64,000 nucleotides of DNA from Bacteroidales bacterium (GCA_024401715.1 JAKSKO010000001.1:6891-70890); one strand, 5' to 3'; counted from the stretch's first letter, positions 31,158-59,840 are shown. Notes: generated by a model not told the origin, from the letters alone. A program made the numbers and translations.

Positions 31158-31208
31158 CTGTCGAGGTATAACATACAAATATAACGCATAATTGTTGTTT
31201 TTGCAGGT

Positions 31209-33116: not shown

Positions 33117-33162
33117 CGTATTCTTTCCTGTTAAAATAGTTTGGTGAATATAGTGGTAATAG

Positions 33163-34169: not shown

Positions 34170-35699
34170 TTATTTTGAAACGGTTTCTTTAACCCAGAAT
34201 GGGGCAAACGGCAGGCCATGATTGCTGAAAAGGTTGCCGGGACGGAAATCTCCCCAGCCATAACGCACCTCCCAGTGCTCTGCCTTTGCCCTTGGGCATT
34301 TTGTGCAGTCGCCCTCGCAGTTAACGTCATTCAAATGGGCTATGTCCAGGAACATGGTCTTCTTGCCGACGTCAAACCATGCATGGCGTACAGGATGCCA
34401 TACGCCGTCGCCACGGCTTACTTCCAGGCCCTCAATCTCCAGCTGGCGTCCCATTCCCTCCGGACAGCGCTCCACAATAAGGTGCAGATGGTCCACATCC
34501 TTCGGATCCCTTATCACCTCCACGCCCACAGGATAGTCGCAGCTGATGCCGTGATAGCCGCTGAAACCGTAATGGCGGTTCAGAGCCATGCGTGCAAGGC
34601 GTTTACCCACCTCCTGTTTCTTCGTAGGGTGGATATTCACGCGCTCGTAAGGGTATACAAGGTCGTTGGTAACTATGATGCCGCAGTTCTCCACCTCGGC
34701 CGCAACCTGATGCTGGGCCTGGCGCAGAAGCGCAGCCATGCTCTCCTGATCTCCGCCGTAATCGTAAGGGGCAATCTCGCAGGTATAGAAAGGAAGGCGC
34801 GCGGCGTCATCGCCGAAATCGGCACGGAACTGGCGTATAAGCTCTTTCATGCGCGGAACAAACTCTTCGTGCTTTCCAACGTTGGAGCAGCCCTGATACC
34901 ATATGAAGCCGGCAATGGTGTAGCCCTTCAAAGGGAACTGCATTGCGTTGTATATCTTGAAAGGCCTGTGATAGTGGTGCTGCATGGCATCTATTGCCTC
35001 ATGGGAAAGATCCTCGGTGCCGAAAGAGGCAACGGTCTGCTCCGGAAGCCAGCCTTCCACGCGTGCTCCGCCATAAGCATTGCATATAATGCCCACAGGC
35101 ACGTCCAGAATGGCATTCAGTTCACGCGCAAAGAAGAATGCGGTGGCGCTCATGTCCTGGATGCCCTGCAGATTGGCAAGGCGCCAGAAACCGCGACCCT
35201 CTGTGATTGGGGTATAGGATTGGTCGTTTTTCTCTGTATACATGCGCACCTTGTCGCTTAGGTCCGGGCCGCAGATAACGTCCTGGAAGCCCTCCACAGG
35301 ACAGCTGTGGAAGCCGCGCATTGGCATCTCCATATTGCTCTGGCCCGATGCCATCCAAACCTCGCCCACAAGGACATTGTCAATCTTCATGCTGCCGCCG
35401 TCGCCGCTTATGCTTATGCTGCGGTGCTCGTAAGAGCCCTTCGGAGTGGCAACATTCACACGCCACACGCCGTTCTCATCGGCCGTAACAGTGTATTTTT
35501 TCTTGTCCCATGACGGCTGGACGCTGACTTTGGCTCCGGCCGATGCATGTCCCCACACAAGGGCCGATGCATTCTGCTGCAGGACCATACCGTCGCTGCA
35601 AGGCTGTTTCACTTCAAGTTTGGCAAATGCCGACAATGCAAAAAGCATTGCTGCGCAGCAAAGAGAAAGGCGCAAAGCGATACGATGCTTTGTTTTCAT
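34170..35699 (-). CDS. SGNH/SASA-type carbohydrate O-acetylesterase (sialate O-acetylesterase family)
   Basis: Signal peptide; MVLQQN, GEVWMASGQSNM, WYQGCSN, NIHP, VRYGW, GLPFAPF. Confidence 0.85.
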   Translation of the reverse strand: MKTKHRIALRLSLCCAAMLFALSAFAKLEVKQPCSDGMVLQQNASALVWGHASAGAKVSVQPSWDKKKYTVTADENGVWRVNVATPKGSYEHRSISISGDGGSMKIDNVLVGEVWMASGQSNMEMPMRGFHSCPVEGFQDVICGPDLSDKVRMYTEKNDQSYTPITEGRGFWRLANLQGIQDMSATAFFFARELNAILDVPVGIICNAYGGARVEGWLPEQTVASFGTEDLSHEAIDAMQHHYHRPFKIYNAMQFPLKGYTIAGFIWYQGCSNVGKHEEFVPRMKELIRQFRADFGDDAARLPFYTCEIAPYDYGGDQESMAALLRQAQHQVAAEVENCGIIVTNDLVYPYERVNIHPTKKQEVGKRLARMALNRHYGFSGYHGISCDYPVGVEVIRDPKDVDHLHLIVERCPEGMGRQLEIEGLEVSRGDGVWHPVRHAWFDVGKKTMFLDIAHLNDVNCEGDCTKCPRAKAEHWEVRYGWGDFRPGNLFSNHGLPFAPFWVKETVSK

Positions 35700-35702
35700 A
35701 AT

Positions 35703-38108
35703 TTACAGGATTATTGTTTCAGGCGCGCAGCCATCCACATTTATTGTTACTTTAACTTCTCCCCTTCCCAGGGCCGCCTCATCGGAGCGGAGGATGAACT
35801 GGGCGCAACCGTTGAAGAATTTCCAGCTGCTGCTCTTTTCATCGGCCTGCCAGCCGGAATCTCCGTTACCCACGCCCTGCAGGTATGCCGGGCCCTCTAT
35901 CTGCACGGATACGCCATTGCAGCCGTCGGCAACAAAAGAGGATTTCCTGTCCAGAAGGCGCATATCCACAACGGCCTGTGCAGGACGCACGAATTTTTCC
36001 ATTTCCAGCCTGGCTGCAGGGCCGCTTGTGCGCACAACCGTGGTCATCACGCGCTTGCCATTCTTGAAACCGTCGGCCTTCAAGGTTCCCGGCTGATATT
36101 CCACCAGCCACTCAATATGCCCGTCGGCAGGCATTTTCTTCCTGCCCATGTTGCGGCCGTTCACAAACAGCTGCACCATATCGCAGTTGGAATAGGCCCA
36201 AACGCTTATTTTCTCTCCCTCGTGGCCCGCAAGGTTCCAGTGAGGCAGAAGGTGAAGCACAGGCTCTGAAGTCCACCAGGCCTTAAGATAATATGCCTCA
36301 TCCTTATAGAAACCGCAGTAGTCCAGAAGGCCGAAGGAAGAACCCGTTGCAGGGAAAAGCAGAGGATTGGATTCTCCGCGGTAGTCAAAACCGGTCCAGT
36401 AGAAAAGGCCTCCCAGCCAAGGGCGCTGGTGATAGAACTTCCATCCGCGCTCTATGCAGTTGTAAAGGCTGTCCGGGCCCTGTTTGCCACGGTTGATTGC
36501 CGGCATATGCGCTCCGCTTGGGTCTTCAAAATACCAGCCTCGCGTGCCGCAGCCCGTGGTTTCCTCGGATCCCACTGCTGCGCGCAAAGGGAATTTATCC
36601 CTCTGTCCCTCAACATCATTCTGTATGATATAATTGTAGCCGGCAACATCAACAGGCTCCAGAACAACCGGGCCGCTGCTTGTTGCAACCATCATCTGGC
36701 GAGTAGGGTCGGCACGATGGCAGAACTCTTTCATAACCGAAGACAGCCTGCTGCCGAACACGTTCCATTCTATGCCCCACTCCTCGTTGCCTATGCTCCA
36801 CAGCACAACGCAAGGATGGTTGCGGTCCCTTCTTATCATTCTTTCCAGATGCTCCCTGTGGTAGGCGTTCACGCCCATGAGGCGGTTCTCGTCAATAACC
36901 AGGAAACCCAGGCTGTCGCAAAGGTCCAGAAGGGCAGGCGCCATGGGGTTATGACTGCTGCGTATTGCGTTGCAGCCGAAACTGCGCAGACGCTCCAACC
37001 TGTATTCATACAGTTCGTCGCTTATTGCAGAACCCACTCCGGCGTGGTCCTGATGCAGGTTCACGCCCTTTATCTGCACTCTCTTGCCGTTAAGAAGGAA
37101 GCCCTCATCGGGATGGAACAGCACTGTGCGTATGCCTGTGCGTATGTCCAGGCAGTCTGAGACCCTGCCATCGCAGCTAAGCGAAACCCTTGCGGTATAA
37201 AGATAAGGGTCATCCACATCCCAAAGCTGCGCCGATGGAAGGTCCACGGTAACGCGGGCCATTCCGCTGTCCTGCGGAAGCAGGATATTGTTCAAGGCCA
37301 CACGCCTCTTTGCAACTTCATTTCCGGCTGCGTCAATAAGTACGCATTCCAGTTCCACGCCTCTCTTTGCCGATGCGGAGGCATTGAAAAACTCAGCCTC
37401 AACATTCACGTGCGCGGTACCCAGCGCATCCACATCGCTGTGGATGAAAACACCATCGGCGGGGAAATGAACCTGATTCTTTCGTATAAGCCAGGCGTGG
37501 CGGTAGATGCCGGCGCCTTCATAGAACCAGCCCGATTCCTCCTTGGCGTCCACCCTCACCGCAACAACATTGCTGCCGCCGTAGTTGAGATACTGGGTGA
37601 TATCATATTCCGATGAAACGTAACCGTCATCCTCCCTGCCAAGATAGAAACCGTTCACCCACAACTGTGAGGAATGGAAAATGCCATCGAAGCGCAGAGA
37701 TATGGCGCTACCCTCGTAAGAAGCCGGGATATCGAATTCCTTGCGGTACCAGCCCACCGATGTCTCCGGGAAACCAGGGCCTACAGTCTTGTAGCCATGG
37801 CTGTGGCTGGCCTTTGCATCGAAGGGAAGCTCCACCACCCAATCGTGCGGAAGGCGCACCTCCTTCCACTCCCTGCCCCATTTTGCAGGCTCAAATTTAG
37901 GGCTGTAAGGGCCCTCGTTGTGGATTGACGCCGCCTTGGTCCAGTAGTTGAAATACTCTGTGCCGGACCCGAAATCCGCATCGGCAGACGAAGCGCTGCC
38001 AAAGGCGAATTTCCAGGACGAATCGAAAGACTGCACCTCTCTGGGGCCGGCAAAAGAAAGCACAGCCGCACACAGAAGGGTGCAGATAGTAATGAGGATA
38101 CGTTTCAT
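35703..38108 (-). CDS. GH2 glycoside hydrolase, probable beta-galactosidase
   Basis: Signal peptide; LPHDW, WFYEGAGIYR, GVNLHQDHAGVG, RSSHNP, WSIGNEE (acid/base), WTGFDYRGE. Confidence 0.87.
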   Translation of the reverse strand: MKRILITICTLLCAAVLSFAGPREVQSFDSSWKFAFGSASSADADFGSGTEYFNYWTKAASIHNEGPYSPKFEPAKWGREWKEVRLPHDWVVELPFDAKASHSHGYKTVGPGFPETSVGWYRKEFDIPASYEGSAISLRFDGIFHSSQLWVNGFYLGREDDGYVSSEYDITQYLNYGGSNVVAVRVDAKEESGWFYEGAGIYRHAWLIRKNQVHFPADGVFIHSDVDALGTAHVNVEAEFFNASASAKRGVELECVLIDAAGNEVAKRRVALNNILLPQDSGMARVTVDLPSAQLWDVDDPYLYTARVSLSCDGRVSDCLDIRTGIRTVLFHPDEGFLLNGKRVQIKGVNLHQDHAGVGSAISDELYEYRLERLRSFGCNAIRSSHNPMAPALLDLCDSLGFLVIDENRLMGVNAYHREHLERMIRRDRNHPCVVLWSIGNEEWGIEWNVFGSRLSSVMKEFCHRADPTRQMMVATSSGPVVLEPVDVAGYNYIIQNDVEGQRDKFPLRAAVGSEETTGCGTRGWYFEDPSGAHMPAINRGKQGPDSLYNCIERGWKFYHQRPWLGGLFYWTGFDYRGESNPLLFPATGSSFGLLDYCGFYKDEAYYLKAWWTSEPVLHLLPHWNLAGHEGEKISVWAYSNCDMVQLFVNGRNMGRKKMPADGHIEWLVEYQPGTLKADGFKNGKRVMTTVVRTSGPAARLEMEKFVRPAQAVVDMRLLDRKSSFVADGCNGVSVQIEGPAYLQGVGNGDSGWQADEKSSSWKFFNGCAQFILRSDEAALGRGEVKVTINVDGCAPETIIL

Positions 38109-38114
38109 GGTAAA

Positions 38115-40304
38115 TTATTTAACCTCTTCCAGATACAGCACGCGGCTGCTCCAGTCATTCTTCTTGTGATATTCAACCTCGTTGGAGTACGGAATCTCCA
38201 GGCCGTTCTGCATAAGGAAAAGACCGTCGAACACCTTGCCCTCGAATTTCAGAGGCTGCAGGTCCACGCGGTTAAGCTCTTTCACACGATACTGCTTGCA
38301 AGGGTCCAGACCTGCCATGCACACGCGTGGGAAATGGGAATCATACATATTCTCCAGCTTCCACCAATAGAACACGGCCTTGTCCTTCTCTTCGCTCACA
38401 TACATCATCGAGGCTATACCCTTGTTGTCGTAAGGAGACACAAGACGGTAGATATCGCCGAACTGAACCACAGGACGAATCTCCTTGTACTGGGCAATCG
38501 CATTGCGGCACAGGGTCTTCTCCTCCTCTGTCATGTTCTTCGGCTGGATCTCCATGCCCAGACGGCCGCTCATTGCAACGTCAATACGGTATTTCAGCGC
38601 TGTGGTGCGGAATACGGTATGGTTTGGAGTTGCGCTGATATGGCTTGCCATGGCAATTGCAGGGAAGAAATAGGATGTACCCCACTGCATGTACACGCGC
38701 TGCAGGGCATCGGTGTTGTCGCTTACCCAGAACTCGTCGAACCAAGGCAGCACGCCCCAGTTGGCACGTCCGCCACCGCTGGCGCAGCACTGGATGGTAA
38801 TATCAGGATACTTGGCACGGATGCGGTCGCAGGCCTTTGCAAAGCCGCGCCAGTACTCTACCTCCAGATGGCCCTGGTGCTTGAGATACTTGCTGTGACG
38901 GCTCTGGACAGGCATGTTTGCATCCCACTTGATATAGTCTATCTGAGGGTTTTCCGTCATAATCTTGTCTACGACATCAACCACAAAGTCCTGCACTGCA
39001 GGGTTGCACATATCCAGCACCAGCTGTGTGCCGCCGCGGCCGTAGTCGTTGGGACGGTTTGGAGTGCCAAGAACCCAGTCCGGATGTGCCTCGTAAAGCT
39101 CGGAAGGATTGTTGGTCATCTCCGGCTCTATCCATATGCCGAATTTTATGCCGTGCTGCGTTGCATGCTCCACCAGCCAGCCTATGCCGTGAGGAAGCTT
39201 GTTCCTGTCCACGATCCAGTCGCCAAGGCTGCTGTTGTCTGTAAGACGCGGATATTTGTCGCCAAACCAGCCGTCGTCCATCACAAAGAGCTCGCCGCCC
39301 ATGGAGGCGATATCGCCCATCATCTGGTCCATTCCAGGCTCGTTGATGTCAAAATATACGCCCTCCCAGCTGTTCAGGAGCACCTTGCGCTCTTTGTCTC
39401 CGTGTGCAAGGCGGTATTTGCGGCCCCAGTTGTGGAAGTTGCGGCTCACACCGCTAAGGCCCTGTGCAGAATAGGTGTAGGCAAGGGCCGGAGTTGTAAA
39501 GCGCTCGCCCTTCTCAAGGATGTATTCCGAGTTTTCGTCACAGATGCCGGCGTAGAACATGTTGTAGTCATCGTCGTTGCTCTTGAAGCGCAGCTCGTAG
39601 TCGCCGCCCCACTCCAGGGCAACACCTATCACGCGGCCGCTGTTCTCGGCAGGTTTGCCGTCAAGGCTTATCATGGCCTCGGCATGGGCGGTGTGCGAGT
39701 TGCGTGTGCCGTCGGTATTCTTGATTACCTTGTAGCCGCGGGTAAGAGGCTCGGTATTCACCCTGCCCTCATTGGCCCATGTGCCGTACAGCGTGCTTAT
39801 CCACACGTCGCCACCCCTGAAAGGAAGGCTACCGCTGAAGTATCGGCCAAGAGTGAGAGGCTTCTTGCCATCATTGCCAATCTCTGCCCATGTCTCGATG
39901 AGGTCCTGCTGCTCGTAGCTCTTGAAGAAGTTCTTCACAACAACGGGATATACAGGATCCTTGGTGGTCACGGTAACAATCTTGCCGCCCTCCCAGGCCT
40001 CTTCCTTCACGTCCACGATTGGCAGCACAAGGGTCTTGTTGCCATCGGGATGCGTAACCGCGATGGTATAGTCCACGGCCGAATGCTGGCCAAACGGAGC
40101 ATAGGCGCGGTGGCTCCTGAAGCCGGCGTCAAAGACGCTCTGCACATCGTCAAGCGCGGCACCGTAATAGGCAATGCCAAGGTCGCCGCCTGTTTTTGTG
40201 TCAAGCACAAGGGTTGTGTTCTTTGTGCCGATGACGGTCTGTGCCTGTGCCGATATGGCAAAAGCCGCAGCAAAGAAAAGGGAAATGATGGTATGTTTTT
40301 TCAT
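38115..40304 (-). CDS. GH36 alpha-galactosidase
   Basis: Signal peptide; LLNSWEGVYF, ELFVMDDGWFG, FGIWIEPEM, YIKWDAN, CASGGGR, WVSDNTD. Confidence 0.93.
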   Translation of the reverse strand: MKKHTIISLFFAAAFAISAQAQTVIGTKNTTLVLDTKTGGDLGIAYYGAALDDVQSVFDAGFRSHRAYAPFGQHSAVDYTIAVTHPDGNKTLVLPIVDVKEEAWEGGKIVTVTTKDPVYPVVVKNFFKSYEQQDLIETWAEIGNDGKKPLTLGRYFSGSLPFRGGDVWISTLYGTWANEGRVNTEPLTRGYKVIKNTDGTRNSHTAHAEAMISLDGKPAENSGRVIGVALEWGGDYELRFKSNDDDYNMFYAGICDENSEYILEKGERFTTPALAYTYSAQGLSGVSRNFHNWGRKYRLAHGDKERKVLLNSWEGVYFDINEPGMDQMMGDIASMGGELFVMDDGWFGDKYPRLTDNSSLGDWIVDRNKLPHGIGWLVEHATQHGIKFGIWIEPEMTNNPSELYEAHPDWVLGTPNRPNDYGRGGTQLVLDMCNPAVQDFVVDVVDKIMTENPQIDYIKWDANMPVQSRHSKYLKHQGHLEVEYWRGFAKACDRIRAKYPDITIQCCASGGGRANWGVLPWFDEFWVSDNTDALQRVYMQWGTSYFFPAIAMASHISATPNHTVFRTTALKYRIDVAMSGRLGMEIQPKNMTEEEKTLCRNAIAQYKEIRPVVQFGDIYRLVSPYDNKGIASMMYVSEEKDKAVFYWWKLENMYDSHFPRVCMAGLDPCKQYRVKELNRVDLQPLKFEGKVFDGLFLMQNGLEIPYSNEVEYHKKNDWSSRVLYLEEVK

Positions 40305-40317
40305 ATTGTCGGATCGA

Positions 40318-42744
40318 TTAAAGTTCCACTGTTACGTCGTGTGTACCAGGCTCGTAAGGGATAAAGGCCTTGCCGCCCTTGCCAGTGAGCTTGACGGTGA
40401 TGTTGTACACGGCATCGCGCCATACGCGGCGCACCTTGTAGCCTTTCCAGTCGGCAGGGACGCAAGGCTCTATGCTTAGGCCGTCATACTCCGGTTTCAC
40501 GCCAAGTATCCACTGCGAAGCCAGATACCAGTTCCAGGCTGCGGTGCCTGTGAGCCAGCTGTTCTTTCCCTCGCCCGGACGTGCACTCTCCTTGCCGGCC
40601 ACCATCTGGCAGTATACGTAAGGCTCCACCCTGTGCAGGTTCTGGTCTTTGGTGAAGGCCGGGCAGATCTTGCAGTAGTGGTCCCATGCATCCTGTGCAC
40701 GGCCGGCCACAACCTCACCTATGATAACCCAAGGGTTGTTGTGGCAGAATATGCCGCCGTTCTCCTTGTAGCCCTGAGGGTAAGATGAAATCTCACCATA
40801 TTCTATGTGGTATTTCGTGAATGCAGGATAGTTCAGAACCATACCGTGCTCGCTGTCCAGAAGGGCCTTGCTGCTGTCCAGAGCCTTGTCGCACAGGCCC
40901 TCGGCAGCACCGATGCCGGCCATTGTGCACCAGCCCTGGCTCTCTATGAATATGTGGCTGCCCTCGCTCTCTTTGGAACCAATCTTGCCGCCATAGAAAT
41001 CGTATGCGCGCAGGAACCATTCACCGTCCCAGCCATATTTCTTCACAGCCTCTTCCATATCGGCGATGGCTGCCTTCACATTTGCAATCTCATCATCGTG
41101 TCCGCCGCCTGGAATATGCTGCAGAAGCTCCAGATACTGGTGTCCGCAGAACACGAACTGGCCCGCAATCATAAGGCTCTCCGCCTTGCTTCCCACGGAA
41201 TTGTTCTCTGTGGTCTGGAAGCTTTCGTTAGGGTCGTTGCTGAAGCAGTTCAGGTTCAGACAGTCGTTCCAGTCTGCACGGCCAATCAGCGGAAGCCCGT
41301 GAGGGCCAAGGTTGTCTGTGACGTGCTTGAATGAAACACGCAGGTGCTCCAGCAGGCTCACCTCGCTGCCCGGCTGGTTGTCGAACGGAACCGGAGCATC
41401 CAGGATGCCGAAATCGCCGCTCTCCTTGATATATGCAACCGTGCCGAAGATAAGCCACAGAGGGTCGTCATTGAAGCCACCGCCTATGTCGTTGTTGCCG
41501 CGTTTGGTAAGAGGCTGGTACTGGTGGTAGCAGCCGCCGTCCGGGAACTGGGTGGATGCGATATCAATTATTCTCTCGCGTGCACGGGCAGGAATCTGGT
41601 GTACGAAGCCCACAAGGTCCTGGTTGGAATCGCGGAAACCCATTCCACGGCCCACGCCGCTCTCGAAGAAGGATGCGCTTCGGCTCATGTTGAATGTAAC
41701 CATGCACTGATACTGGTTCCATATGTTCACCATGCGGTTCAGTTCCTCGCTCTCGGACTCTACGCTGTATCGGTCCAGAAGGGAGTCCCAATACTGGCAA
41801 AGCTGCGCAAATGCGGCGTCCACCTTCTCCGTGGTGTTGAAGCGCGCAATCATCTCCTTCGCAACGCTCTTGTTCACAAGGGCAGAGCAGGTGTTAAGTA
41901 TCTCCGGATGCGCCTCGGTATCGAATTTCTGGTCCTGAGGCATCTCCACATAACCCAGGATGAACACGATATCGCGGCTCTCGCCAGGCTCCAGGCAAAG
42001 GTCGAAGCGGTGCGATGCCACAGGGCTCCAGCCGTGCGCCACGCTGTTCTTTGAAATACCCTCAACCACACACTCCGGTGCGTCGAAACCGTTATACAGG
42101 CCGATGAAGCTCTCGCGGTCTGTGTCGAAGCCGCTCACAGGAGCATTGGCGCTGTAGAAAGCGAAATGATCCCTGCGCTCGCGGTACTCTGTCTTGTGAT
42201 AGATGGTGCTACCGTCAATCTCCACCTCGCCGGTAGAGAAGTTGCGCTGGAAGTTTTCCATATCGGTGGCGGCATTCCAAAGGCACCACTCCTCGAAGGA
42301 ATACAGTTTGAATTCCTTCTTCTGGGACGATTTGTTGCAAAGGGTCACCTTCTGCACCTCGCAACGGCTGCCCATTGGCACGAAGAAAAGCACCGATGCC
42401 TCCAGGCCGTTCAAAGATCCTGTGATGCGGGTGTATCCCATGCCGTGGCGGCACTCATAGAAGTCCAGTTTAGTCTTGCTTGGCTTCCAGCCCGGGTTCC
42501 AGATCTTTCCACCCTCGTTGATATAGAAATATCGTCCGCCGGCATCCATAGGAACGCCGTTATAGCGGTAGCGTGTGATTCTGCGGAACTTTGCATCGCG
42601 GCAGAAACTGTATCCGCCGGCTGTGCCGGAAATCAGAGAGAAGAAATCCTCTGTTCCAAGATAATTTATCCAAGGCCAGGGAGTTGCGGGATCTGTGATT
42701 ACGAACTCGCGGGCCGCATCATCAAAATGACCGTAATTTTTCAT
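40318..42744 (-). CDS. GH94 cellobiose phosphorylase-like enzyme (cytoplasmic)
   Basis: [51 protein letters not shown]...[30 protein letters not shown]. No signal peptide. Confidence 0.93.
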
Positions 42745-42767
42745 CGTAATAATCGGTATTTCAAAAA

Positions 42768-44123
42768 CTATTTCTTGATAGGGAACTTATATGCAAGCAA
42801 TCCCATAACCACTGCAAGGGCTGCAGGAATCAGGGAGAACAGCAGCCACACCATCTGGCGCACAGACTCCTCGTCCGTGATTGTAACTATGGTCTGGCCA
42901 GTTGTCATGTCGGTTTCGGAAACCAGGCCTGCGATGCCAAGAAGCATGGCGATAAGCGAACCGGAAACGGCGCCGCCAAGTTTCTGTGCCATGGTGCCTG
43001 AAGAGAAGATGAGGCCTGTTGACGAAGTGCCGAACTTCTCTGTGGCATAATCGGCAACATCGGCATACATGCTCCACAGAAGCGGAGAATAGAAACCGGC
43101 GCCGATAGAGGCCAGGACGTTAACACCCACCATCACCCAGATGTAGGCCGGGTTCATAGGGATGAAGAAGTAAAGCACCGATGCAGCGCAGCAGATGACT
43201 GCAGACCATACGAAGGCCATGCGCTTGCTGCCCACCCATTTGGTGAATACCGGAGACAGACCGCCGAAGACCATGCAGGTAACCTCGCTGAAGGCCATGA
43301 ATACGGTGTAGTTGATAATGAGACGGCCCACGGTTACGTCGCCGCCAAGACAGTAGGTTATCATGTAACCCGCAACCGCATAACGGAAACCGTTGAAGAA
43401 GTTTGTGCAGATTGCAATCAGGGTCATGTATATCCATGGTTTGTTGCGGAAAAGGTCTGCGAACTGGCGGAAAGAGAATTTCTCTGCACGCACAGGTTTA
43501 AGCCTCTCCTTGGTGAGGAGGCCGCAAAGCAGGGTCATCACCGCAGCAAGTATACCGAAGCCCACGCCCAGCACGGTGTACTGGTGAGCCTCTGTGCCGC
43601 CGATGAATTTCTGGAGGTACGGGAAGGACAGCAGAGTTACGAAACCCATTGCATAAGCTCCCACCATGCGGTATGAAGAGAACTGGTTTTTCTCGTTGTC
43701 GTCATCTGTCATCACGCCCAGAAGCGAACCGTAAGGCACGTTAACGGCAGTGTACAAAGCCATCATCAGAAGATAGAAAGTGTATGCCCACACGCGTTTT
43801 GCTCCGGGGCCCAGTTCCGGTGTGAACAGCAGAAGCATGAACACAAGACCGTAAGGGATGGCGCCGTAGATGAGCCATGGACGGTATGTGCCGAAGCGGC
43901 TCTGGGTGCGGTCTGCAAGGCTGCCCATCACAGGGTCTGTTACGACGTCAAAAAGACGTGCTATGAGCATCAGCGCCGCAGCATCGGCAAATGAAAGTCC
44001 GAAGACATTGGTGAAGAACAGCGGGAAGGCGATTGACATTATCTTCCATGTGATACCGCCCGCAGCCGCATCACCAAGCGCATACGCTATTTTTTCTCCG
44101 ATAGTTGGTTTTGAAAGTGCCAT
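42768..44123 (-). CDS. GPH/MFS glycoside-cation symporter
   Basis: [42 protein letters not shown]. Confidence 0.92.
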
Positions 44124-44127
44124 TGGA

Positions 44128-45285
44128 TTATTTTTTTAGATTTTTATCAATGAGTCTGTTAAGTCTTTCCACGGTGAGGCCGGTGCGATAGCCGTCCTGC
44201 TCTGTGTTCATGCAGTAGTCCACAAGGCGGTCTACGGTTGAGGTGGCAACGTGCATGCGTGTGTCGCATGAAGCATAGTAGATATATACCCTGCCATCCT
44301 CGTCGGCAATCCATCCGTTGCTGAAAAGCACGTTCATAACGTCGCCTATATATTCCTCGTCCTCCGGAACCATGAAGAAACCTGCCGGCTGGGCAATGAG
44401 TTTCGTAGGGTCCTCAAGGGAAGTCATATACATATACAGGACATAACGCAGGCCCGAAGCGCAGCCGCGCACACCGTGCGCAAGATGCAGCCAGCCCTTT
44501 GAAGTCTTGATAGGGTGCGGGCCCTCGCCGTTCTTGCTCTCCTTGATGGTGTGGTAGAAGCGCTGGTTGATTATCTTCTCTTCCTTAACCTCTGCATTGG
44601 TGATGTCGTCCACCAGGGCCCAGCCTATGCCACCGCCGCTGCCAGCATCAATGAAACCGTCCTGCGGGCGTGTGTACAGGGCATATTTGCCGTCCACAAA
44701 CTCCGGATGCAGAACAACGTTGCGCTGCTGGCTCTTGGATTTCAAATCCGGAAGCCTCTCCCAGTTCACCAGGTCTCTGGTGCGGGCTATGCCGCAGGCT
44801 GCAGTTGCCGCAGAAAGGTCTCCGGGCACGCTGTGGTCCTTGCGTTCCACACAGAAAAGGCCGTAGATCCAGCCGTCCTGGTGGCGTGTAAGGCGCATGT
44901 CATACACGTTTGTTGCGGGCTCTCCATACTCCGGCATGGTAACAGGATGATCCCAGAAACGGAAATTATCCACTCCGTTGGGGCTTTCCGCCACAGCAAA
45001 GAAAGACTTGCGGTCATCGGCCTCAACGCGCACAACAAGCACATACTTGTCTCCCCATTTGATGGCGCCGCTGTTGAATGCGGCATGCACGCCGAAACGC
45101 TCTTCCAGGAAAGGATTATCCTTCGGGTCCAAATCGTAACGCCAAAAAAGAGGGGCGTGGGCTGCCGTAAGGATAGGATTCTTATATCTCTCATAAACCC
45201 CGTTGCAGTAAACGGGTTCGTTTTTCATAGTTATCAAGGCCTCATGCTCTGCCTCAAGGGCAGAAAGTTTCTCCTGAAAATCCAT
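44128..45285 (-). CDS. mgp: GH130 4-O-beta-D-mannosyl-D-glucose phosphorylase
   Basis: ILTAAHAPLFWRYDL, DRKSFFAVAES, NVYDMRLT, SQQRNVVLHPEFVDGKYALYTRP, GDVMNVLFSNG. Resembles the Bacteroides fragilis MGP type. Confidence 0.9.
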   Translation of the reverse strand: MDFQEKLSALEAEHEALITMKNEPVYCNGVYERYKNPILTAAHAPLFWRYDLDPKDNPFLEERFGVHAAFNSGAIKWGDKYVLVVRVEADDRKSFFAVAESPNGVDNFRFWDHPVTMPEYGEPATNVYDMRLTRHQDGWIYGLFCVERKDHSVPGDLSAATAACGIARTRDLVNWERLPDLKSKSQQRNVVLHPEFVDGKYALYTRPQDGFIDAGSGGGIGWALVDDITNAEVKEEKIINQRFYHTIKESKNGEGPHPIKTSKGWLHLAHGVRGCASGLRYVLYMYMTSLEDPTKLIAQPAGFFMVPEDEEYIGDVMNVLFSNGWIADEDGRVYIYYASCDTRMHVATSTVDRLVDYCMNTEQDGYRTGLTVERLNRLIDKNLKK

Positions 45286-45292
45286 AGTTTAT

Positions 45293-46336
45293 TTATTTGA
45301 CAAAAATTGTTCTTTCGTTATTGCAGAATTCCACGAAGTCCTGCTCGCAAGCGGCACCTTTCCAAGGGCCGAAGAAATGCTGCGGCCTGTCCCAGGCATT
45401 GCGCCATGTGAGGACATATGCAACAGGGAAACCCTCCACTGAAGGAAGCAACTCCTCTGTCCACCATTTAGGATTGCCTATGCCCTCTGAACCGGTCTCA
45501 CAAACCGCCATCACCTTACCATGCTCTTTTGCAAGAGGAAGTATGGTTTCCATCTGGCTGCGCATGCCCTCGGTGAAATTGGCACTATGGCCGTGGTAAT
45601 AGTCAAATCCCATGATATCCACATATTCGTCACCGGGATATGTAAGCATATACTTTTCCGCATCAACAACCCCGTTTGGTGAATATGCCCATACCAGATT
45701 GTCAATGCCTCTTTCTTTCACGAAATAATCATAAGTCATAATCCACAGCTGCTTGAACTGCTCCGGTGTGCAAAGGTCTGCACCCCACCAGAACCAGCTG
45801 CCGCTGTTCTCGTGCCAAGGACGGAAAATCAGAGGGAAACCATAGCTCTGGATATAATCCGCCGCACGCTGCAGCCAAACCATGAATTCATCGTGTTTCT
45901 CTCCTCCTGGAAGTATGGATTCCACCACCTTGTCTGAAGACACATCCCATGCGTCGCCACCGGTAAGAGGATTGCGGGGATGCCAGCTGAAGGTTATGAT
46001 ACCGCCCTTGTCATGAAGCCATGCAGCGGCCTGGCGCATCTGCCGGAAACTGTTACCATCCAGATTTTTATCACTGCCAAGTTCTATGCCGCCAAGGTCG
46101 TAACCAAGCATTGAAGGATATTCTCCGCAGACGTCAAAGACATCCGAACGGCTGAAATCGCAATCTGCATCTTCCAGGCGCCATGAATGCCCGTACATAA
46201 GATCGTCTTGATGACAATAATAGAATCTGCCCGATTCTGCAGTCTGTTTCAACTGTTCCAGAAGAGGCTGCGCCACGGGTTGCTGTGCACATGCGGCAAA
46301 AAGAGCCGCAGTAAGGATAAGGCTTAATTTTTTCAT
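45293..46336 (-). CDS. GH26 beta-mannanase lipoprotein
   Basis: Lipobox MKKLSLILTAALFAAC from 46336; SWHPRNP, IFRPWHE (acid/base), YPGDEYVD, VCETG (nucleophile). Confidence 0.92.
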   Translation of the reverse strand: MKKLSLILTAALFAACAQQPVAQPLLEQLKQTAESGRFYYCHQDDLMYGHSWRLEDADCDFSRSDVFDVCGEYPSMLGYDLGGIELGSDKNLDGNSFRQMRQAAAWLHDKGGIITFSWHPRNPLTGGDAWDVSSDKVVESILPGGEKHDEFMVWLQRAADYIQSYGFPLIFRPWHENSGSWFWWGADLCTPEQFKQLWIMTYDYFVKERGIDNLVWAYSPNGVVDAEKYMLTYPGDEYVDIMGFDYYHGHSANFTEGMRSQMETILPLAKEHGKVMAVCETGSEGIGNPKWWTEELLPSVEGFPVAYVLTWRNAWDRPQHFFGPWKGAACEQDFVEFCNNERTIFVK

Positions 46337-46350
46337 ATGTGGTTTCAATA

Positions 46351-48714
46351 TCATTTCAGGCTGTCAAAGAATTTCTCCCTCTCTGCCGCCCACTCCGGCA
46401 CGGCCCATATGCCATGTCCGCAATATGCTGCAGTGTAATAGGATTTAGGACCGGCAAACTGGTTGTAGGCCGCAAAATTGGTGTGAGGCGGGCAGGTTGG
46501 GTCCTGAAGGCCGAAGCCCATCTTCACAGGGCACTTCACGCGGCGTGCGAAGTTCTTGGTATCGAACCAGCGCAGAAGGTCCAGCACCTGTTCGCGGCTG
46601 ATACCCTCTTTCTCCGCAGCCTCGAACACCTCCCATACAGGCCACCACACTATCTTCCAATAGTCGCAGAAATCGCCCATGAAAGGAACTGCCGGCGCGG
46701 CTGCCTTAATCCTGTTGTCCAGTGCCGATGCAACGATGGTGAACGCGCCTCCCTGGCTTTCGCCCAGCGCAAACACATGGTCTGTATCGGCATTAGGGAG
46801 ACTGCACACGAAATCTATTGCGCGTACAACGTCGCAGTAGGCTCCCCTGTAATAGAAATTCTCCTTTGAATCCAGGCCGCGGTCTATCCAGCGGGCCTGA
46901 GGCTCGCGGAAGATACCCTGGCCGCGCACGCTAACAAGGAACTGTATGCGCTCCGGATTGGAATCCGGGTTATAGTCATATACACCGGCGCCATAGCCCA
47001 TGTACTCCAGATAAACCGGATATTTTCCTTCGGCATTTGGCATGCACAAAAGGCCGCCAATCTCTGCTCCGCCAAGGGATTTCATCTTCACGCGGTAGCT
47101 GCTGCGCACTTCGTTGCTGTGGGCCTCGTCCTTTTCCATGGTAACATCCATAGGAACTGCCGCAAGCTCCTGCAGGTTCTTTGTCCAGAAAGCGTCAAAC
47201 TCCTCAGGATTCACATCCACCGGGGATTCTATCATTTCCGGATCGATGCCTATATTGAAGCTCTTCAATTCCCCGCCGTTATAGCTTACGCGGGTCTGAT
47301 AGAAACCCGGCTCCACAGCGGAAAGATCAAATGAAGCACGCTGGCCCGCCTTCACGCTGCTGCCAAGGATGCAGACTGTATCGGCCTGAAGCATGAGGCT
47401 GCGGTCTGCAACAAGAGCCACATTCACGGTAACGTCGTTCCTGCTGTCGCCGTAGGTATCAACGTAAAGGGTTTTCTCCTTGCCGGTGAAAATCCAGTCG
47501 TGCTGCATCGCAACATAAACGTGGTTGTTGTTCTTCAGGGCCGATGTTGCAGCGGAAATCACGTCAACGGTGCTGTCGCCCACAAACACAGAGTTCAGGC
47601 CCTGCTGCTCCTGGCCCGGGTCGCCGCAATAGTCGTCACCCTCCTGCCACCACTCGTGGGCATTGTCCGCAAAACCGCCCCATGCCCAGAAATTGCAGCC
47701 TGCAAGAAGGCCGCCCTTGGCCTGGTTTTCCACAACACGGTTGAAAACATAGCCGTAAATGGCGTCTCGGCCTACGGTTGAAGAGGCTTTGTCGAAACAG
47801 AAACCGTCACGCGGATAACCGAACTCCTCCACAACCACCGGCTTGTTCATCTCGGCGGCAATCTTCAGATGAGAATCTATGTACTCCCCTATCTTCTCTA
47901 TTGCAGAATCGTATCCGTCCGATATTCCGTCTTCCTCCACCCAGCTCCAGTTATATGGCCAGATGTGTATGGTGATGTAATCAATCTCGCGGCTGTTGTT
48001 GATGCGGCGCACAAGGTCCATATCCTCCTCACAGCCCATGAAGCCCTCGTTGCCGGTGCTCACAAGATGGTCCGGATCTATGGATTTGATAAGCCATGCG
48101 GTGCTAAGTATATAATTCACGAATGCATCCTTGTTCTTTGGATCGGAGCTGAAACAGCGGGGCTCGTTGCTAATCTGCCAGCTGAAGATGGCTTTGCTGC
48201 CCTTCAGGCGCTCCACAGCCTTTTTCACATACTCCTGGTTCAGGGCCACAGCCTGCGAATTGGTATGGAAGCCGGCCATTGCACTCATATAAGCCTGATA
48301 GCCATCCACACTTGGCCTTGGCTGCCTTTGCGAGGTTGCGCTCTCCAGATAATCCAGGAAGCCGTAGCTCCACTCCCATGCATTGTTAAGGAAGAGCACA
48401 GCCTTCATGCCGCGCTTTTCCATCTGCTGCAGGGCAAGCTCCAGCGCATCCAGGTCTTCACCTTCGGTTGCAAGCACGCGAAGGTTGGTTACACCTATGC
48501 CCTTCAGATAGTCCAGCTCCTTTTCCAGGCGCTGCATGCCCTCTGCCGATGCGGCAAGACGTCCCGCATACCACATATTGGCTCCGATGAAATACTGGGG
48601 CTGACCGTCAAGCACGAACTGGCCGTCAACCACTTTCACGTCCTGCGACGCTTCCGAACCGCCGCAGGCAACAATTGCAAATACTGCAACAAAAAAGATG
48701 ATTAGTTTCTTCAT
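46351..48714 (-). CDS. Fused GH5 (mannanase-like) and CE7 acetyl esterase lipoprotein
   Basis: Lipobox ...FAIVAC. GH5 motifs WQISNEP, TIHIWP, VVEEFG, NFWAWGG. CE7 motifs EYMGYG, GESQGG, LQDPTCPP, CGH. Confidence 0.87.
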   Translation of the reverse strand: MKKLIIFFVAVFAIVACGGSEASQDVKVVDGQFVLDGQPQYFIGANMWYAGRLAASAEGMQRLEKELDYLKGIGVTNLRVLATEGEDLDALELALQQMEKRGMKAVLFLNNAWEWSYGFLDYLESATSQRQPRPSVDGYQAYMSAMAGFHTNSQAVALNQEYVKKAVERLKGSKAIFSWQISNEPRCFSSDPKNKDAFVNYILSTAWLIKSIDPDHLVSTGNEGFMGCEEDMDLVRRINNSREIDYITIHIWPYNWSWVEEDGISDGYDSAIEKIGEYIDSHLKIAAEMNKPVVVEEFGYPRDGFCFDKASSTVGRDAIYGYVFNRVVENQAKGGLLAGCNFWAWGGFADNAHEWWQEGDDYCGDPGQEQQGLNSVFVGDSTVDVISAATSALKNNNHVYVAMQHDWIFTGKEKTLYVDTYGDSRNDVTVNVALVADRSLMLQADTVCILGSSVKAGQRASFDLSAVEPGFYQTRVSYNGGELKSFNIGIDPEMIESPVDVNPEEFDAFWTKNLQELAAVPMDVTMEKDEAHSNEVRSSYRVKMKSLGGAEIGGLLCMPNAEGKYPVYLEYMGYGAGVYDYNPDSNPERIQFLVSVRGQGIFREPQARWIDRGLDSKENFYYRGAYCDVVRAIDFVCSLPNADTDHVFALGESQGGAFTIVASALDNRIKAAAPAVPFMGDFCDYWKIVWWPVWEVFEAAEKEGISREQVLDLLRWFDTKNFARRVKCPVKMGFGLQDPTCPPHTNFAAYNQFAGPKSYYTAAYCGHGIWAVPEWAAEREKFFDSLK

Positions 48715-48756
48715 AAAAAATGTGGGTTACGTAGTAAACACACCATGTAACCCACA
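48715..48756 (-). terminator. Intrinsic terminator-like hairpin downstream of xylA
   Basis: Minus strand: TGTGGGTTAC-N16-GTAACCCACA (perfect 10-bp stem) followed by TTTTTT and then directly by the ATG of the GH5-CE7 gene. Confidence 0.65.
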
Positions 48757-48815
48757 AAATTAATAATTAATCAGTTAAATGACTGATACTATTATAACAT
48801 ATATTTTTGTTATTT

Positions 48816-50126
48816 TTAGATATAAAGACTTACTATCGCCTCATACAACTCCTGGCTGCCGGAAGTGCATGCAGGCTCGCCCTGAGCTTTGGCATACTCT
48901 ACCACCTGCTCCAGTGTAAGCTCACCGTCCTCGAACTTCTTGCCCATACCCTCGTCATAAGAAGCGTAGCGCTCCTTAAGCATTGCAGGGATCTCTGAAT
49001 TCTCCAGGATATCGGCAGCAATCAGAAGGGCGCGTGCCATCATGTCCATACCGCTGATATGTGCGATGAAGATATCCTTCAGGTCTGTAGAGTTACGGCG
49101 TGTCTTGGCGTCGAAGTTGGTGCCGCCGCCCTGGAATCCGCCGCCTTTCACAATCACAAGCATTGCCTGTACAAGCTCGTAGATATCAACAGGGAACTGG
49201 TCTGTATCCCAGCCGTTCTGGTAGTCACCGCGGTTTGCGTCAATTGATCCCAGCATGCCGTTGTCCACTGCGCACTGAAGCTCGTGCTCGAAGGTGTGGC
49301 CGGCAAGTGTTGCGTGGTTAACCTCAATGTTCACCTTGAAGTCCTTGTCCAGGCCGTTTGCCTTAAGGAAGCCGATAACAGTCTCCGTGTCAACATCATA
49401 CTGATGCTTCATAGGTTCCATCGGCTTAGGCTCGATGAGGAATACGCCCTTGAAGCCCTTTGAACGCGCGTAATCGCGAGCCATGCGGAGCATTGTTGCA
49501 AGGTGTGCCTTCTCACGTTTCATATCGGTGTTAAGAAGGCTCATATAACCCTCTCGGCCGCCCCAGAACACATATGCGTCACCGCCCAGCGCGATGGTTG
49601 CGTCCAGAGAATTCTTGATCTGAACCATTGCACGTGCGGCAACGTTGAAATCAGGATTGGTGCTTGCACCGTTCATATATCTCTTGTGACCGAATACGTT
49701 GGCAGTGCCCCAGAGGTTCTTGATGCCTGTCTCTTTCATCTTCTGCTGCAGATATGCAACAATCTCCTTGTAGTTTGCCTCGTACTCCTCTATGGTCTGG
49801 GCCTCCTCGCAAAGGTCCACGTCATGGAAACAGAAATACTCTATTCCAAGTTTCTGCATAATCTCGAAACCTGCATCAGCTTTGGCTTTCGCACGCTCCA
49901 GTGCAGTTGCGCCCTCATTCCAAGGGAAATTCTTTGTGCCCGGGCCGAACTGGTCGCTGCCCTCGGCGCACAGGGTGTGCCACCATGCCATGGCAAACTT
50001 GAACCAATCTTTCATCGGTTTGCCTGCCACAACACGCTCCGGCTGATAGTAGTGGAATGCCATAGGATTTTTCGAAGATGTTCCTTCGAATGGGATCTTG
50101 CCGATCTCAGGGAAATACTGTTTCAT
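48816..50126 (-). CDS. xylA: Xylose isomerase (class II)
   Basis: FAMAWWHTLC, FCFHDVD, LWGTAN, VFWGGREGY, LIEPKP, NIEVNHA, GWDTDQFP. Confidence 0.97.
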   Translation of the reverse strand: MKQYFPEIGKIPFEGTSSKNPMAFHYYQPERVVAGKPMKDWFKFAMAWWHTLCAEGSDQFGPGTKNFPWNEGATALERAKAKADAGFEIMQKLGIEYFCFHDVDLCEEAQTIEEYEANYKEIVAYLQQKMKETGIKNLWGTANVFGHKRYMNGASTNPDFNVAARAMVQIKNSLDATIALGGDAYVFWGGREGYMSLLNTDMKREKAHLATMLRMARDYARSKGFKGVFLIEPKPMEPMKHQYDVDTETVIGFLKANGLDKDFKVNIEVNHATLAGHTFEHELQCAVDNGMLGSIDANRGDYQNGWDTDQFPVDIYELVQAMLVIVKGGGFQGGGTNFDAKTRRNSTDLKDIFIAHISGMDMMARALLIAADILENSEIPAMLKERYASYDEGMGKKFEDGELTLEQVVEYAKAQGEPACTSGSQELYEAIVSLYI

Positions 50127-50138
50127 TGTTTAGTAAAA

Positions 50139-51602
50139 TTATAGGTTTTTAATCCAATTCTCATATGCTTTGTCCAAGTCCTCCTTCCACTGCGGGTTTG
50201 GAGTGACTCTTTCCAGACAATTAAGGCTCTTGAATGTTTCCTGACTGCTTGCATAAAGCCCGGCGCCAAGGGCCGCACCGCGTGCCGCACCAAGGGAGCC
50301 GTCCGTATCGTAAAGCTCTATGGTTGCATCGCAGAGGGTGGCAAGGCTCTGGCGGAAGATGTCGCTCAGGAAGAGATTGGCCTTGCCTGCACGTATAACC
50401 GAAAGGTTCAGTCCCAGCTCCTTCATCACATCTATGCCATAGCGGAAGGCGAAGGCTATGCCCTCCTGGGCTGCACGCAGCATATGGCTGCGGGTGTGAC
50501 GCACAAGACTCAGACCCAGCATGCCGGCCCCGGGAGCCTTGTTTTCCAGCACGCGCTCCGCTCCGTTTCCGAAAGGATACATCAGAAGGCCGTCGCAGCC
50601 TGCTGGGGCCTTTGCAGCCTCCTGGTTCATCTGCGGGTAGCTGAGTTCCGGACACACGTTGCGGTGCAGCCAGCTGTTGAGGATACCCGTTCCGTTGATG
50701 CACAGAAGCACGCCCAGACGCTGCTGCTGCGCAGTATTGTTCACATGCAGGAAGGTGTTCACGCGGCTTGCACTGTCTGCCTTCGGCAGGTCTGTCACGC
50801 CGTAAACCACACCCGATGTACCGCCCGTTGCAGCAACTTCGCCGGGGTTCAGCACATTAAGGCTGAAGGCATTGTTAGGCTGGTCTCCGGCGCGATAGGA
50901 AACAGGGGTTCCTTCCGAAAGCCCTGTGAGGGCCGATGCCTCGGCGCTAATTCTTGTGGCAATGCCTATGGAAGGCACTATGTCGCAGAATTTATCCTTG
51001 TCTATGCCGTAATATTCCGCCACGAAATCTGCGCGGCAATTATCCTTGAAATCCCAGAGTATGCCCTCCGAGAGCCCGGTTTCGGATGTTCCCATCTCTC
51101 CGGACAGCTTGTATGCAATGTAGTCTCCGGGCAGCATGAACCTGTATATCTTTGCATACAGTTCAGGTTCATTCTTTATCACCCATGCAAGTTTGGATGC
51201 AGTGAAGTTTCCAGGGGAATTCAGCAGATGCTCCAAGCACTTCTCACGGCCCAGTTCCTCCATAGCCTGCGCACCAAGTTCCACGGCACGGCTGTCGCAC
51301 CAGATGATGGAATCGCGCAGAGGCTTCCCCTCCCTGTCCACACAAACAAGGCCGTGCATCTGATAGGTGATACCCACAGCCTTCACAGCCTTCAAATCTA
51401 TGGTTTTTCCCACATCGTCAATACCCTCAAGCACATACTTCCACCACATGTCCGGGTCCTGCTCGGCCCAGGCGGTGTGTACGGCCTTTATAGGCATTTC
51501 AACTTTCGGATTTGTGGAAGAGGCGGCGCAACTGCCGCTTGCAAGGTCCAGGACCGATACTTTTACGGATGAAGATCCGACGTCTATTCCCAAAGTATAC
51601 AT
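50139..51602 (-). CDS. xylB: Xylulokinase
   Basis: LGIDVGSSSVK, GITYQMHG, IIWCDSR, GDQPNNA, GGTSGV. Start corrected to MYTLGID at 51602. Adjacent to xylA. Confidence 0.92.
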   Translation of the reverse strand: MYTLGIDVGSSSVKVSVLDLASGSCAASSTNPKVEMPIKAVHTAWAEQDPDMWWKYVLEGIDDVGKTIDLKAVKAVGITYQMHGLVCVDREGKPLRDSIIWCDSRAVELGAQAMEELGREKCLEHLLNSPGNFTASKLAWVIKNEPELYAKIYRFMLPGDYIAYKLSGEMGTSETGLSEGILWDFKDNCRADFVAEYYGIDKDKFCDIVPSIGIATRISAEASALTGLSEGTPVSYRAGDQPNNAFSLNVLNPGEVAATGGTSGVVYGVTDLPKADSASRVNTFLHVNNTAQQQRLGVLLCINGTGILNSWLHRNVCPELSYPQMNQEAAKAPAGCDGLLMYPFGNGAERVLENKAPGAGMLGLSLVRHTRSHMLRAAQEGIAFAFRYGIDVMKELGLNLSVIRAGKANLFLSDIFRQSLATLCDATIELYDTDGSLGAARGAALGAGLYASSQETFKSLNCLERVTPNPQWKEDLDKAYENWIKNL

Positions 51603-51645
51603 AGGATAAAACAAGACAAAATTTGAGAAAAATGCAAAAAAAATA

Positions 51646-59822: not shown

Positions 59823-59840
59823 ATAATTACCCTCCATAAA

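Follow-up and report, generated by a model that had tools for sequence, protein, structure and literature searches.

Mannan utilization by Bacteroidales can be compared with the operon BF0771-BF0774 of Bacteroides fragilis NCTC 9343, which encodes the GH26 enzyme ManA, a GH130 4-O-beta-D-mannosyl-D-glucose phosphorylase (MGP), a symporter and a cellobiose 2-epimerase. In Ruminococcus albus, the mannan pathway consists of a cellobiose 2-epimerase, the enzymes RaMP1 and RaMP2 and a cellobiose phosphorylase. For glucomannan, the polysaccharide utilization loci (PULs) PUL7 and PUL8 of Segatella copri have been described, of which the epimerase EpiA and the GH130 enzyme were assayed; glucomannan induced GH94 and GH36, and cleavage of cellobiose and Glc-1,4-Man was suggested as the role of GH94 (PMC12704710). 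A dromedary gut fosmid, 26H3, carries the order CE7-GH5-GH26-GH130-transporter with GH3 and GH94 nearby (PMC5877837), and GH94 was found in 42% of the mannan/glucomannan PULs that contain CBM112 and in PUL9 of B. uniformis (PMC13357471). For glucomannan, a pathway of epimerase, MGP and GH94 has been described or put forward before, and GH94 has also been documented in mannan/glucomannan loci. Here we analyze a cluster of GH26, GH130, GPH symporter and GH94 genes in a window of 64,000 nt from the 110-kb contig C1 of a Bacteroidales genome (G000; assembly of 1.98 Mb, 90% complete, 79 contigs); coordinates are counted from the start of the window.

The gene order reported in the initial annotation of the window was confirmed by the listing of open reading frames and by Pfam and NCBIfam scans: GH26, GH130, GPH symporter and GH94 follow each other on the minus strand and most likely form a single transcription unit, because the gaps between them measure only 7, 4 and 23 bp. 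The reported lack of an AGE-family epimerase in the window was borne out as well and extends to the whole of contig C1, since a genome-wide hidden Markov model search for AGE/GlcNAc_2-epim (PF07221) gave matches on contigs C32 and C43 only, and tblastn with the cellobiose 2-epimerase as query gave no match on C1 at a threshold as permissive as E<=10. What did not hold is the conclusion drawn from this, namely that GH94 replaces the epimerase: the genome search for such epimerases, which had been proposed as a check, revealed an intact cellobiose 2-epimerase gene at G000:C32:9990-11189. Very probably we are dealing with a known pathway whose genes have been rearranged, in which the epimerase has been relocated and GH94 complements it without replacing it. 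The four genes under discussion are the following:

45293-46354, minus strand: predicted GH26 beta-mannanase, similar to BoMan26A and CjMan26C (Pfam GH26; PDB 4ZXO, 2VX4)
44128-45285, minus strand: predicted GH130 phosphorylase of the MGP type (match to BfMGP, 3WAS)
42768-44123, minus strand: predicted GPH-family cation symporter (TIGR00792, 244.1 bits, above the cut-off; Pfam MFS_2)
40318-42744, minus strand: predicted GH94 cellobiose phosphorylase (Pfam GH94 domains; cellobiose phosphorylase structures)

All four functions of the B. fragilis operon are present in the G000 genome, the order GH26-GH130-GPH is the same and the GH130 protein is 74% identical to BfMGP. However, the four genes are not contiguous in G000, where the epimerase gene is located on a different contig, with housekeeping genes on either side, and where GH94, GH36, GH2 and esterase genes come after the symporter. 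With R. albus the genome shares the occurrence of an epimerase, an MGP-type GH130 and a cellobiose phosphorylase in one organism, and its GH130 matches RaMP1; it differs in lacking a GH130_2 oligomannan phosphorylase, since the genome contains a single GH130, and in a predicted uptake by SusCD and GPH instead of Firmicutes transport systems. The set known from S. copri PUL7/PUL8 (GH26, GH5_4, GH130, CE7, epimerase, GH36 and GH94 for glucomannan) is found here with the same proposed role for GH94, but the two systems are mirror images in linkage: S. copri has an adjacent epimerase gene and an unlinked GH94, G000 a GH94 inside the operon and an unlinked epimerase gene. Moreover, the S. copri strain was reported to have no beta-glucosidase (PMC12704710), while G000 has six GH3 genes. 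The block CE7-GH5-GH26-GH130-transporter with GH94 nearby is shared with fosmid 26H3 and Dysgonomonas mossii PUL13 (PMC5877837) and with B. uniformis PUL9 and the CBM112 PULs (PMC13357471); unlike those loci, G000 has a fused GH5-CE7 gene and, in addition, XylAB and GH31.

The epimerase gene on contig C32 is an open reading frame of 399 aa without internal stops. Its product matches the cellobiose 2-epimerase of Rhodothermus marinus (RmCE, 3WKF) with E=1e-113 and 50% identity and reaches 263-384 bits against nine cellobiose 2-epimerase structures (263-308 bits for the eight besides 3WKF), versus at most 132 bits against N-acylglucosamine 2-epimerase structures and 53 bits against 5X32. All checked active-site residues of the RmCE structure are kept (His200, His259, His390, Arg66, Tyr124, Glu262, Trp322 and Trp385), which includes the catalytic pair and the ring-opening histidine (His259, His390, His200) as well as the sugar platform Trp322/Trp385. 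The best NCBIfam model is EpiA with 346.8 bits, compared with 87.7 bits for AGE and 47.6 bits for mannose isomerase, and in a tree of cellobiose 2-epimerases the protein falls, with a median branch length, into one clade with the locus-linked epimerases of other members of the genus. Judged by its sequence, it is an intact and genuine cellobiose 2-epimerase. The other AGE-family match of the genome (G000:C43:10223-12034, minus strand; L004) is a protein of 603 aa whose weak AGE-fold domain (residues 143-494) is extended at both termini; its neighbors are genes for an MFS transporter, a thiamine pyrophosphate enzyme and two DJ-1/PfpI proteins. It was rejected as an alternative epimerase in view of 21% identity to the cellobiose 2-epimerase, 65 bits in Pfam, weak NCBIfam matches and this unrelated gene neighborhood.

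The comparison with 24 genomes of the same genus indicates where the epimerase gene came from. In seven of these congeners (G015, G004, G018, G012, G002, G020, G023) it opens the homologous locus and is transcribed away from araC, in the layout epimerase | araC-(GH5-CE7)-SusC-SusD-SGBP (surface glycan-binding protein) and further genes, and six of these seven loci also contain GH94; both enzymes therefore coexist. In G000 the epimerase gene is flanked by a gene for a pdxB-like dehydrogenase and a DUF4301 gene at distances of 36 and 24 bp, with a -7-like box of the TAnnTTTG type (TATATTTG) immediately upstream of it. In five congeners (G001, G013, G007, G006, G010) the pdxB-like and DUF4301 genes are immediate neighbors, no epimerase gene intervening. 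Because the gene is found at the locus head in congeners and the insertion site is empty in five of them, it appears to have moved in the G000 lineage from its place beside araC into the space between the pdxB-like and DUF4301 genes, and not to have been lost. Mis-binning of contig C32 was ruled out, as the DUF4301 and pdxB-like genes beside the epimerase gene recur in congeners with conserved synteny and 54-66% identity; the DUF4301 protein has 54-66% identity in congeners versus at most 52% in other families, and the GC content of the contig is 0.49, that of the genome 0.51. Across the genus, all 14 MGP-bearing genomes have the epimerase and 13 genomes have GH94. Nine of the 12 GH94-bearing congeners have GH130 and GH94 no more than 3 kb apart, usually in the order GH5_4-GH26-GH130-GPH-GH94; one further congener, G016, has the classic order GH26-GH130-GPH-epimerase and no GH94. 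The lack of a pathway gene in a locus is weak evidence that the pathway lacks this gene, which here has been relocated by about 50 kb or more and is intact.

The enzymes encoded in the cluster fit a pathway that includes the epimerase. The GH26 protein (4ZXO, E=5.5e-92; 2VX4, E=9e-62) is predicted to be of the mannobiose-releasing type, as are BoMan26A and CjMan26C; translation probably begins at the ATG at 46336, the end coordinate given in the initial annotation, and the product then carries an MKKLSLIL...FAAC lipoprotein signal. The reading frame as listed (45293-46354) shows an ATGA overlap with the upstream stop codon. The GH130 protein, encoded by the sole GH130 gene of the genome and without signal peptide, matches BfMGP (3WAS) with 669.5 bits (E=1.6e-200, 74% identity) and RaMP1 (5AY9) with 501 bits (E=2.4e-149), and scores low against the oligomannan phosphorylase RaMP2 (5AYD, 72.8 bits) and beta-1,2 enzymes (at most 57.7 bits). 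The catalytic Asp131 (BfMGP numbering) is conserved and the NVYDMRLT motif is intact, and the protein can be assigned to the MGP type.

For GH94, which likewise has no signal peptide, both Pfam domains are full length (PF06165, the supersandwich domain, at residues 22-264; PF17167, the catalytic (alpha/alpha)6 domain, at residues 318-748). The protein scores 1177 bits against the cellobiose phosphorylase of C. thermocellum (3QDE) and 1111 bits against that of C. gilvus (CgCBP, 2CQS), to which it is 62% identical, compared with 387 bits for chitobiose phosphorylase, 104 for 4ZLE and 53 for cellodextrin phosphorylase. Of the active-site residues of the CgCBP structure, 14 of 14 checked are conserved (Gln165, Arg166, Arg351, Arg362, Trp488, Asp490, Thr508, Glu649, Tyr653, Lys658, His666, Asn667, Gln712, Thr731). 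The catalytic Asp490 in RADWND corresponds to Asp494 of the query and the phosphate ligands Arg351, His666 and Thr731 to Arg355, His668 and Thr732, while the +1 subsite for the glucose acceptor (Gln165, Arg166, Glu649, Tyr653, Lys658) is identical to that of CgCBP. This points to a canonical cellobiose phosphorylase (EC 2.4.1.20); a cellobionic-acid or chitobiose phosphorylase was ruled out by the scores and the active-site residues. The two-phosphorylase glucomannan route suggested in the initial annotation is retained in its phosphorylases, GH130 for Man-Glc and GH94 for cellobiose, but not as an epimerase-free route. The GH2 protein, for which a beta-mannoside specificity had been considered, is of the GalA beta-galactosidase type, and a role as beta-mannosidase was ruled out. 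We infer that the GPH symporter imports beta-1,4-linked disaccharides over the inner membrane. It is 73-76% identical to its counterpart in G012 and G007 and 36-37% identical to the GPH protein at the same slot in most other congeners, which looks like a non-orthologous swap of the transporter within a conserved operon.

The gene identities, the conservation of active sites, the intact epimerase with its old and new positions and the co-occurrence figures were observed directly, and they would be compatible with the following pathway. The surface lipoproteins (GH5_4, GH5-CE7 and two SGBPs) would bind and cut the polymer and SusCD would take in the oligosaccharides, which periplasmic GH26, GH36, GH2, GH31 and esterases would trim to di- and monosaccharides, GH36 stripping the galactose side chains. 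The GPH symporter would bring the disaccharides into the cytoplasm, in the case of glucomannan Man-Man, Man-Glc, Glc-Man and Glc-Glc. There the epimerase would act on the reducing-end sugar and interconvert Man-Man with Man-Glc and Glc-Man with Glc-Glc. GH130, acting on Man-Glc alone, would phosphorolyze Man-beta1,4-Glc to Man-1-P and Glc, and GH94 would phosphorolyze Glc-beta1,4-Glc to Glc-1-P and Glc and may weakly use Glc-beta1,4-Man. Epimerase, MGP and cellobiose phosphorylase together would use up all four disaccharides with one ATP saved per bond, and the fate of mannobiose, which had been left unexplained, would be accounted for by epimerase and GH130. GH94 may in addition take cellobiose from the xyloglucan/beta-glucan side, which would be compatible with its role in glucomannan breakdown, and xylose freed by GH31 would be processed by XylA and XylB. 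The substrates, the cellular locations (read from the N-termini), the flux through the epimerase and the regulation in this scheme are predictions from sequence.

Across the order, 200 other Bacteroidales genomes of at least 90% completeness were sampled. MGP was found in 39 of the 200. The epimerase accompanies it in 32 of these, or in 33 with the inclusion of a fragment at a contig end, and an ortholog of cellobiose phosphorylase in 28. At least seven of them, belonging to several families, have GH94 no more than 5 kb from GH130 (G045, G177, G185, G205, G196, G070, G146), and the epimerase is encoded in the same cluster in G045, G177 and G146, with the order GH94-GH26-GH130-GPH-epimerase in G045. 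The combination of GH130 and GH94 genes is common in Bacteroidales, and the G000 window itself is of little consequence, the pathway and the gene combination being already familiar. A canonical epimerase was absent from six of the 39 MGP-bearing genomes (G025, G112, G120, G162, G185, G189), and G112, G120 and G189 gave no AGE-family match at all. In G185, which has no canonical epimerase, GH130 is followed by a 610-aa AGE-fold protein, GPH and GH94 (L043 8533-10365; G185:C16); as a substitute for the epimerase the AGE-like protein was ruled out, because it has a C-terminal sorting domain of the type IX secretion system and is thus most likely secreted. In G025, MGP and cellobiose phosphorylase are present and the canonical epimerase is not; in a cluster of this genome (L045, G025:C15:318000-337990), a GPH symporter is encoded together with an AGE-like protein of 604 aa and a GH94 that has diverged to 33% identity to cellobiose phosphorylase, and the cluster may represent a distinct disaccharide pathway. 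Genomes with MGP and cellobiose phosphorylase and without a canonical epimerase are the better places to look for epimerase-free use of MGP.

For G000, it is extremely unlikely that the route runs without epimerization, with GH130 acting on Man-Glc made directly from glucomannan, GH94 acting on Glc-Glc and Glc-Man, and the C32 epimerase irrelevant. Such a reading could appeal to the position of the epimerase gene outside the locus and its contig, to the lack of the locus-specific motif upstream of it and to the six other MGP-bearing Bacteroidales without a canonical epimerase, three of them without any AGE-family match; since such genomes exist, epimerase-free use of MGP may occur somewhere. 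Against it speak the intact ortholog with all checked active-site residues, its relocation instead of loss, the joint occurrence of MGP and epimerase in 14 of 14 cases in the genus, the loci that hold epimerase and GH94 together in six congeners and also in other families, and the mannobiose-releasing type of GH26, as an MGP-type GH130 could not use mannobiose if the epimerase were lacking. Only slightly less improbable, and still very unlikely, is the evolution of GH94 into a dedicated 4-O-beta-D-glucosyl-D-mannose phosphorylase, a new GH94 specificity that would make the epimerase dispensable for Glc-Man. The gene does adjoin mannan genes, and mannose serves cellobiose phosphorylases as a weak acceptor; however, all checked residues of the -1, +1 and phosphate sites, including Glu649, Tyr653, Arg166 and Gln165, are identical to those of CgCBP, and the identity to characterized cellobiose phosphorylases is at least 62%. 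Of greater weight, although we still consider it doubtful, is the idea that GH94 mainly serves the glucan side of a merged locus and receives cellobiose from xyloglucan or mixed-linkage glucan after the action of GH5_4, GH31 and GH2, its adjacency to GH130 reflecting a shared importer only. The presence of GH5_4, GH31, a GalA-type GH2, XylA/XylB and an SGBP with a xyloglucan-binding-type domain in the locus argues for it, and the rumen literature also groups GH94 with PULs for beta-1,4-glucan (PMC6784887). Yet most congener loci do without XylAB, and often without GH31, and retain GH5_4-GH26-GH130-GPH-GH94, the GH94 gene of S. copri is induced by glucomannan (PMC12704710), and the six GH3 genes of the genome could finish glucan oligosaccharides; the glucan and mannan roles are, moreover, not mutually exclusive.

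Several points weigh against the pathway with a relocated epimerase that we prefer. At 346.8 bits the protein falls below the NCBIfam EpiA equivalog cut-off of 800, which weakens the label of an EpiA equivalog and, because the EpiA model is narrow, probably not the membership in the cellobiose 2-epimerase family. The use of the off-locus epimerase during growth on mannan is something we infer, and its regulation may have become separate from that of the locus: a 15-mer motif, GTTAWAAWAGTATYA, derived from the intergenic region between epimerase gene and araC in the congeners, where it is conserved, was not found upstream of the C32 epimerase gene in a genome-wide scan. In the assembly, with its 79 contigs and 90% completeness, physical distances between contigs are lower bounds, and the epimerase gene lies, given the contig ends, at least about 46 kb from the locus. 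The missing motif gives no support for co-regulation, nor is it evidence against expression of the epimerase. The initial annotation had named a co-regulated epimerase elsewhere in the genome as an observation that would contradict it; an epimerase is indeed encoded elsewhere, but co-regulation could not be supported, for the motif is missing there. It is conceivable, though we think it improbable, that the epimerase of G000 has been freed from the regulation of the locus, with its own promoter, housekeeping neighbors and no motif, so that epimerization would either run constitutively or limit the pathway, with more of the flux passing through GH94, which might even have a real activity on Glc-beta1,4-Man, and that elsewhere about 15% of the sampled MGP-bearing Bacteroidales (e.g., G185, G112, G120 and G189) are truly epimerase-free while G000 is not.

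The four-gene cluster appears to be the core for cytoplasmic entry in a Bacteroidales SusC/SusD-type PUL that extends over 28806-63080 of the window; a SusC/SusD pair side by side, carbohydrate-active enzyme genes on the same strand and an AraC regulator were all found. The other genes of the locus are:

59841-63080, minus strand: SusC-like TonB-dependent transporter, gene 1 of the locus (Pfam CarbopepD_reg_2 and Plug; 71% identity to SusC of the congeners' loci)
57987-59837, minus strand: SusD-like lipoprotein (Pfam SusD_RagB and SusD-like_3; lipoprotein signal)
56625-57974, minus strand: SGBP with TIG domains and an SGBP-B xyloglucan-binding-type domain (PF18329, E=5.5e-34)
54233-56608, minus strand: putative SGBP-B-like lipoprotein of 791 aa without family match (AlphaFold2 model and fold matches)
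52533-54167, minus strand: lipoprotein of the GH5_4 endo-beta-1,4-glucanase/xyloglucanase type with an Ig-like domain (Pfam Cellulase and Big_5)
51646-52518, minus strand: AraC-family regulator (Pfam HTH_18 and HTH_AraC; 50-61% identity to the araC product adjoining the epimerase in congeners)
50139-51656, minus strand: xylulokinase XylB (FGGY domains; best NCBIfam model TIGR01312, 282.6 bits, below the cut-off of 380)
48816-50126, minus strand: xylose isomerase XylA (TIGR02630, 662.9 bits, above the cut-off)
46351-48714, minus strand: fusion lipoprotein of 787 aa, GH5 (CmMan5A-like mannosidase/mannanase) and CE7 acetyl esterase (PDB; Pfam AXE1)
38115-40304, minus strand: GH36 alpha-galactosidase with signal peptide (Pfam Melibiase, GH36N and GH36C; N-terminus)
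35703-38108, minus strand: GH2 beta-galactosidase of the GalA type (NCBIfam GalA, 878.6 bits, slightly below the cut-off of 900)
34170-35699, minus strand: SASA-family carbohydrate acetyl esterase with signal peptide (PF03629)
33163-34152, minus strand: cytoplasmic aldo/keto reductase (PF00248)
31413-33173, minus strand: amidohydrolase-family lipoprotein that closes the tight operon (PF07969)
28806-31178, minus strand: GH31 alpha-xylosidase, 234 bp past the operon (BoGH31A 5JOU, E=1.4e-136; CjXyl31A 2XVG, E=8e-132)

From the GH5-CE7 gene (48714) through the amidohydrolase gene (31413), ten genes form a compact unit. In the PDB, the GH5_4 protein matches 6WQY, 4YHE, the xyloglucanase 2JEP and BoGH5A (3ZMR), and in the GH5-CE7 fusion residues 24-385 match 1UUQ (E=4.9e-70) and residues 485-784 the CE7 esterases 1L7A/1ODS. 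The target of the locus is probably beta-1,4-linked hemicellulose, namely acetylated (galacto)glucomannan plus xyloglucan; the GH31 gene after the operon suggests that xyloglucan is handled as well, and the locus might best be described as a merger of glucomannan and xyloglucan-type sets. With the xyloglucan locus of Bacteroides ovatus (3ZMR, 5JOU, 5E7G) it shares GH5_4, the GH31 alpha-xylosidase, the GH2 beta-galactosidase and SGBP-B-like proteins; unlike that locus, it has no GH3, GH9 or GH43, is merged with mannan genes and includes cytoplasmic phosphorylases and xylAB. In the congeners araC stands at the locus head and xylAB is not part of the locus, whereas in G000 araC is internal, 14 bp after the GH5_4 gene and before xylB and xylA; the G000 locus appears to have been reshuffled and to have gained the pentose genes.

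The 791-aa lipoprotein is conserved behind the SGBP gene in congeners and has no Pfam or NCBIfam match. Its AlphaFold2 model is all-beta (mean pLDDT 74.8), with about six Ig/IPT-like domains followed by two C-terminal beta modules, and the best fold matches by Foldseek are the SGBP-B of the B. ovatus mixed-linkage glucan utilization locus (MLGUL; 6E57, E=1e-17) and then the SGBP-B of the xyloglucan utilization locus (XyGUL; 5E7G). The locus thus most likely encodes two glycan-binding proteins, this one being of the SGBP-B-like kind, and the idea of a new enzyme was dropped in favor of this fold. The poorly modeled C-terminal beta modules (residues ~540-791) could represent a new carbohydrate-binding module.

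With regard to regulation, the motif conserved upstream of araC in congeners has, at no more than one mismatch, one site in the 1.98-Mb genome (GTTATAATAGTATCA for GTTAWAAWAGTATYA), which is located upstream of the GH5-CE7 gene:

48784-48798, minus strand: GTTATAATAGTATCA, candidate promoter/operator element, 24 nt upstream of a -7-like box (TAATTTTG), in the xylA/GH5-CE7 intergenic region 48715-48815

Directly before the AUG of GH5-CE7 there is a strong hairpin (GTGGGTTAC...GTAACCCAC) with a U-run, and the 126-nt leader (48705-48830) has a folding energy of -34.8 kcal/mol (z=-5.8). These intergenic elements could constitute a putative AraC operator together with a leader attenuator or terminator. 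The GH5-CE7 fusion itself is kept at 41-52% identity in the loci of several congeners, sometimes with the GH5 half alone. At the other end of the operon, the genes for the aldo/keto reductase and the amidohydrolase overlap by 11 bp, and an aldo/keto reductase is encoded near GH130-GH94 also in G196, a member of another family (L047).

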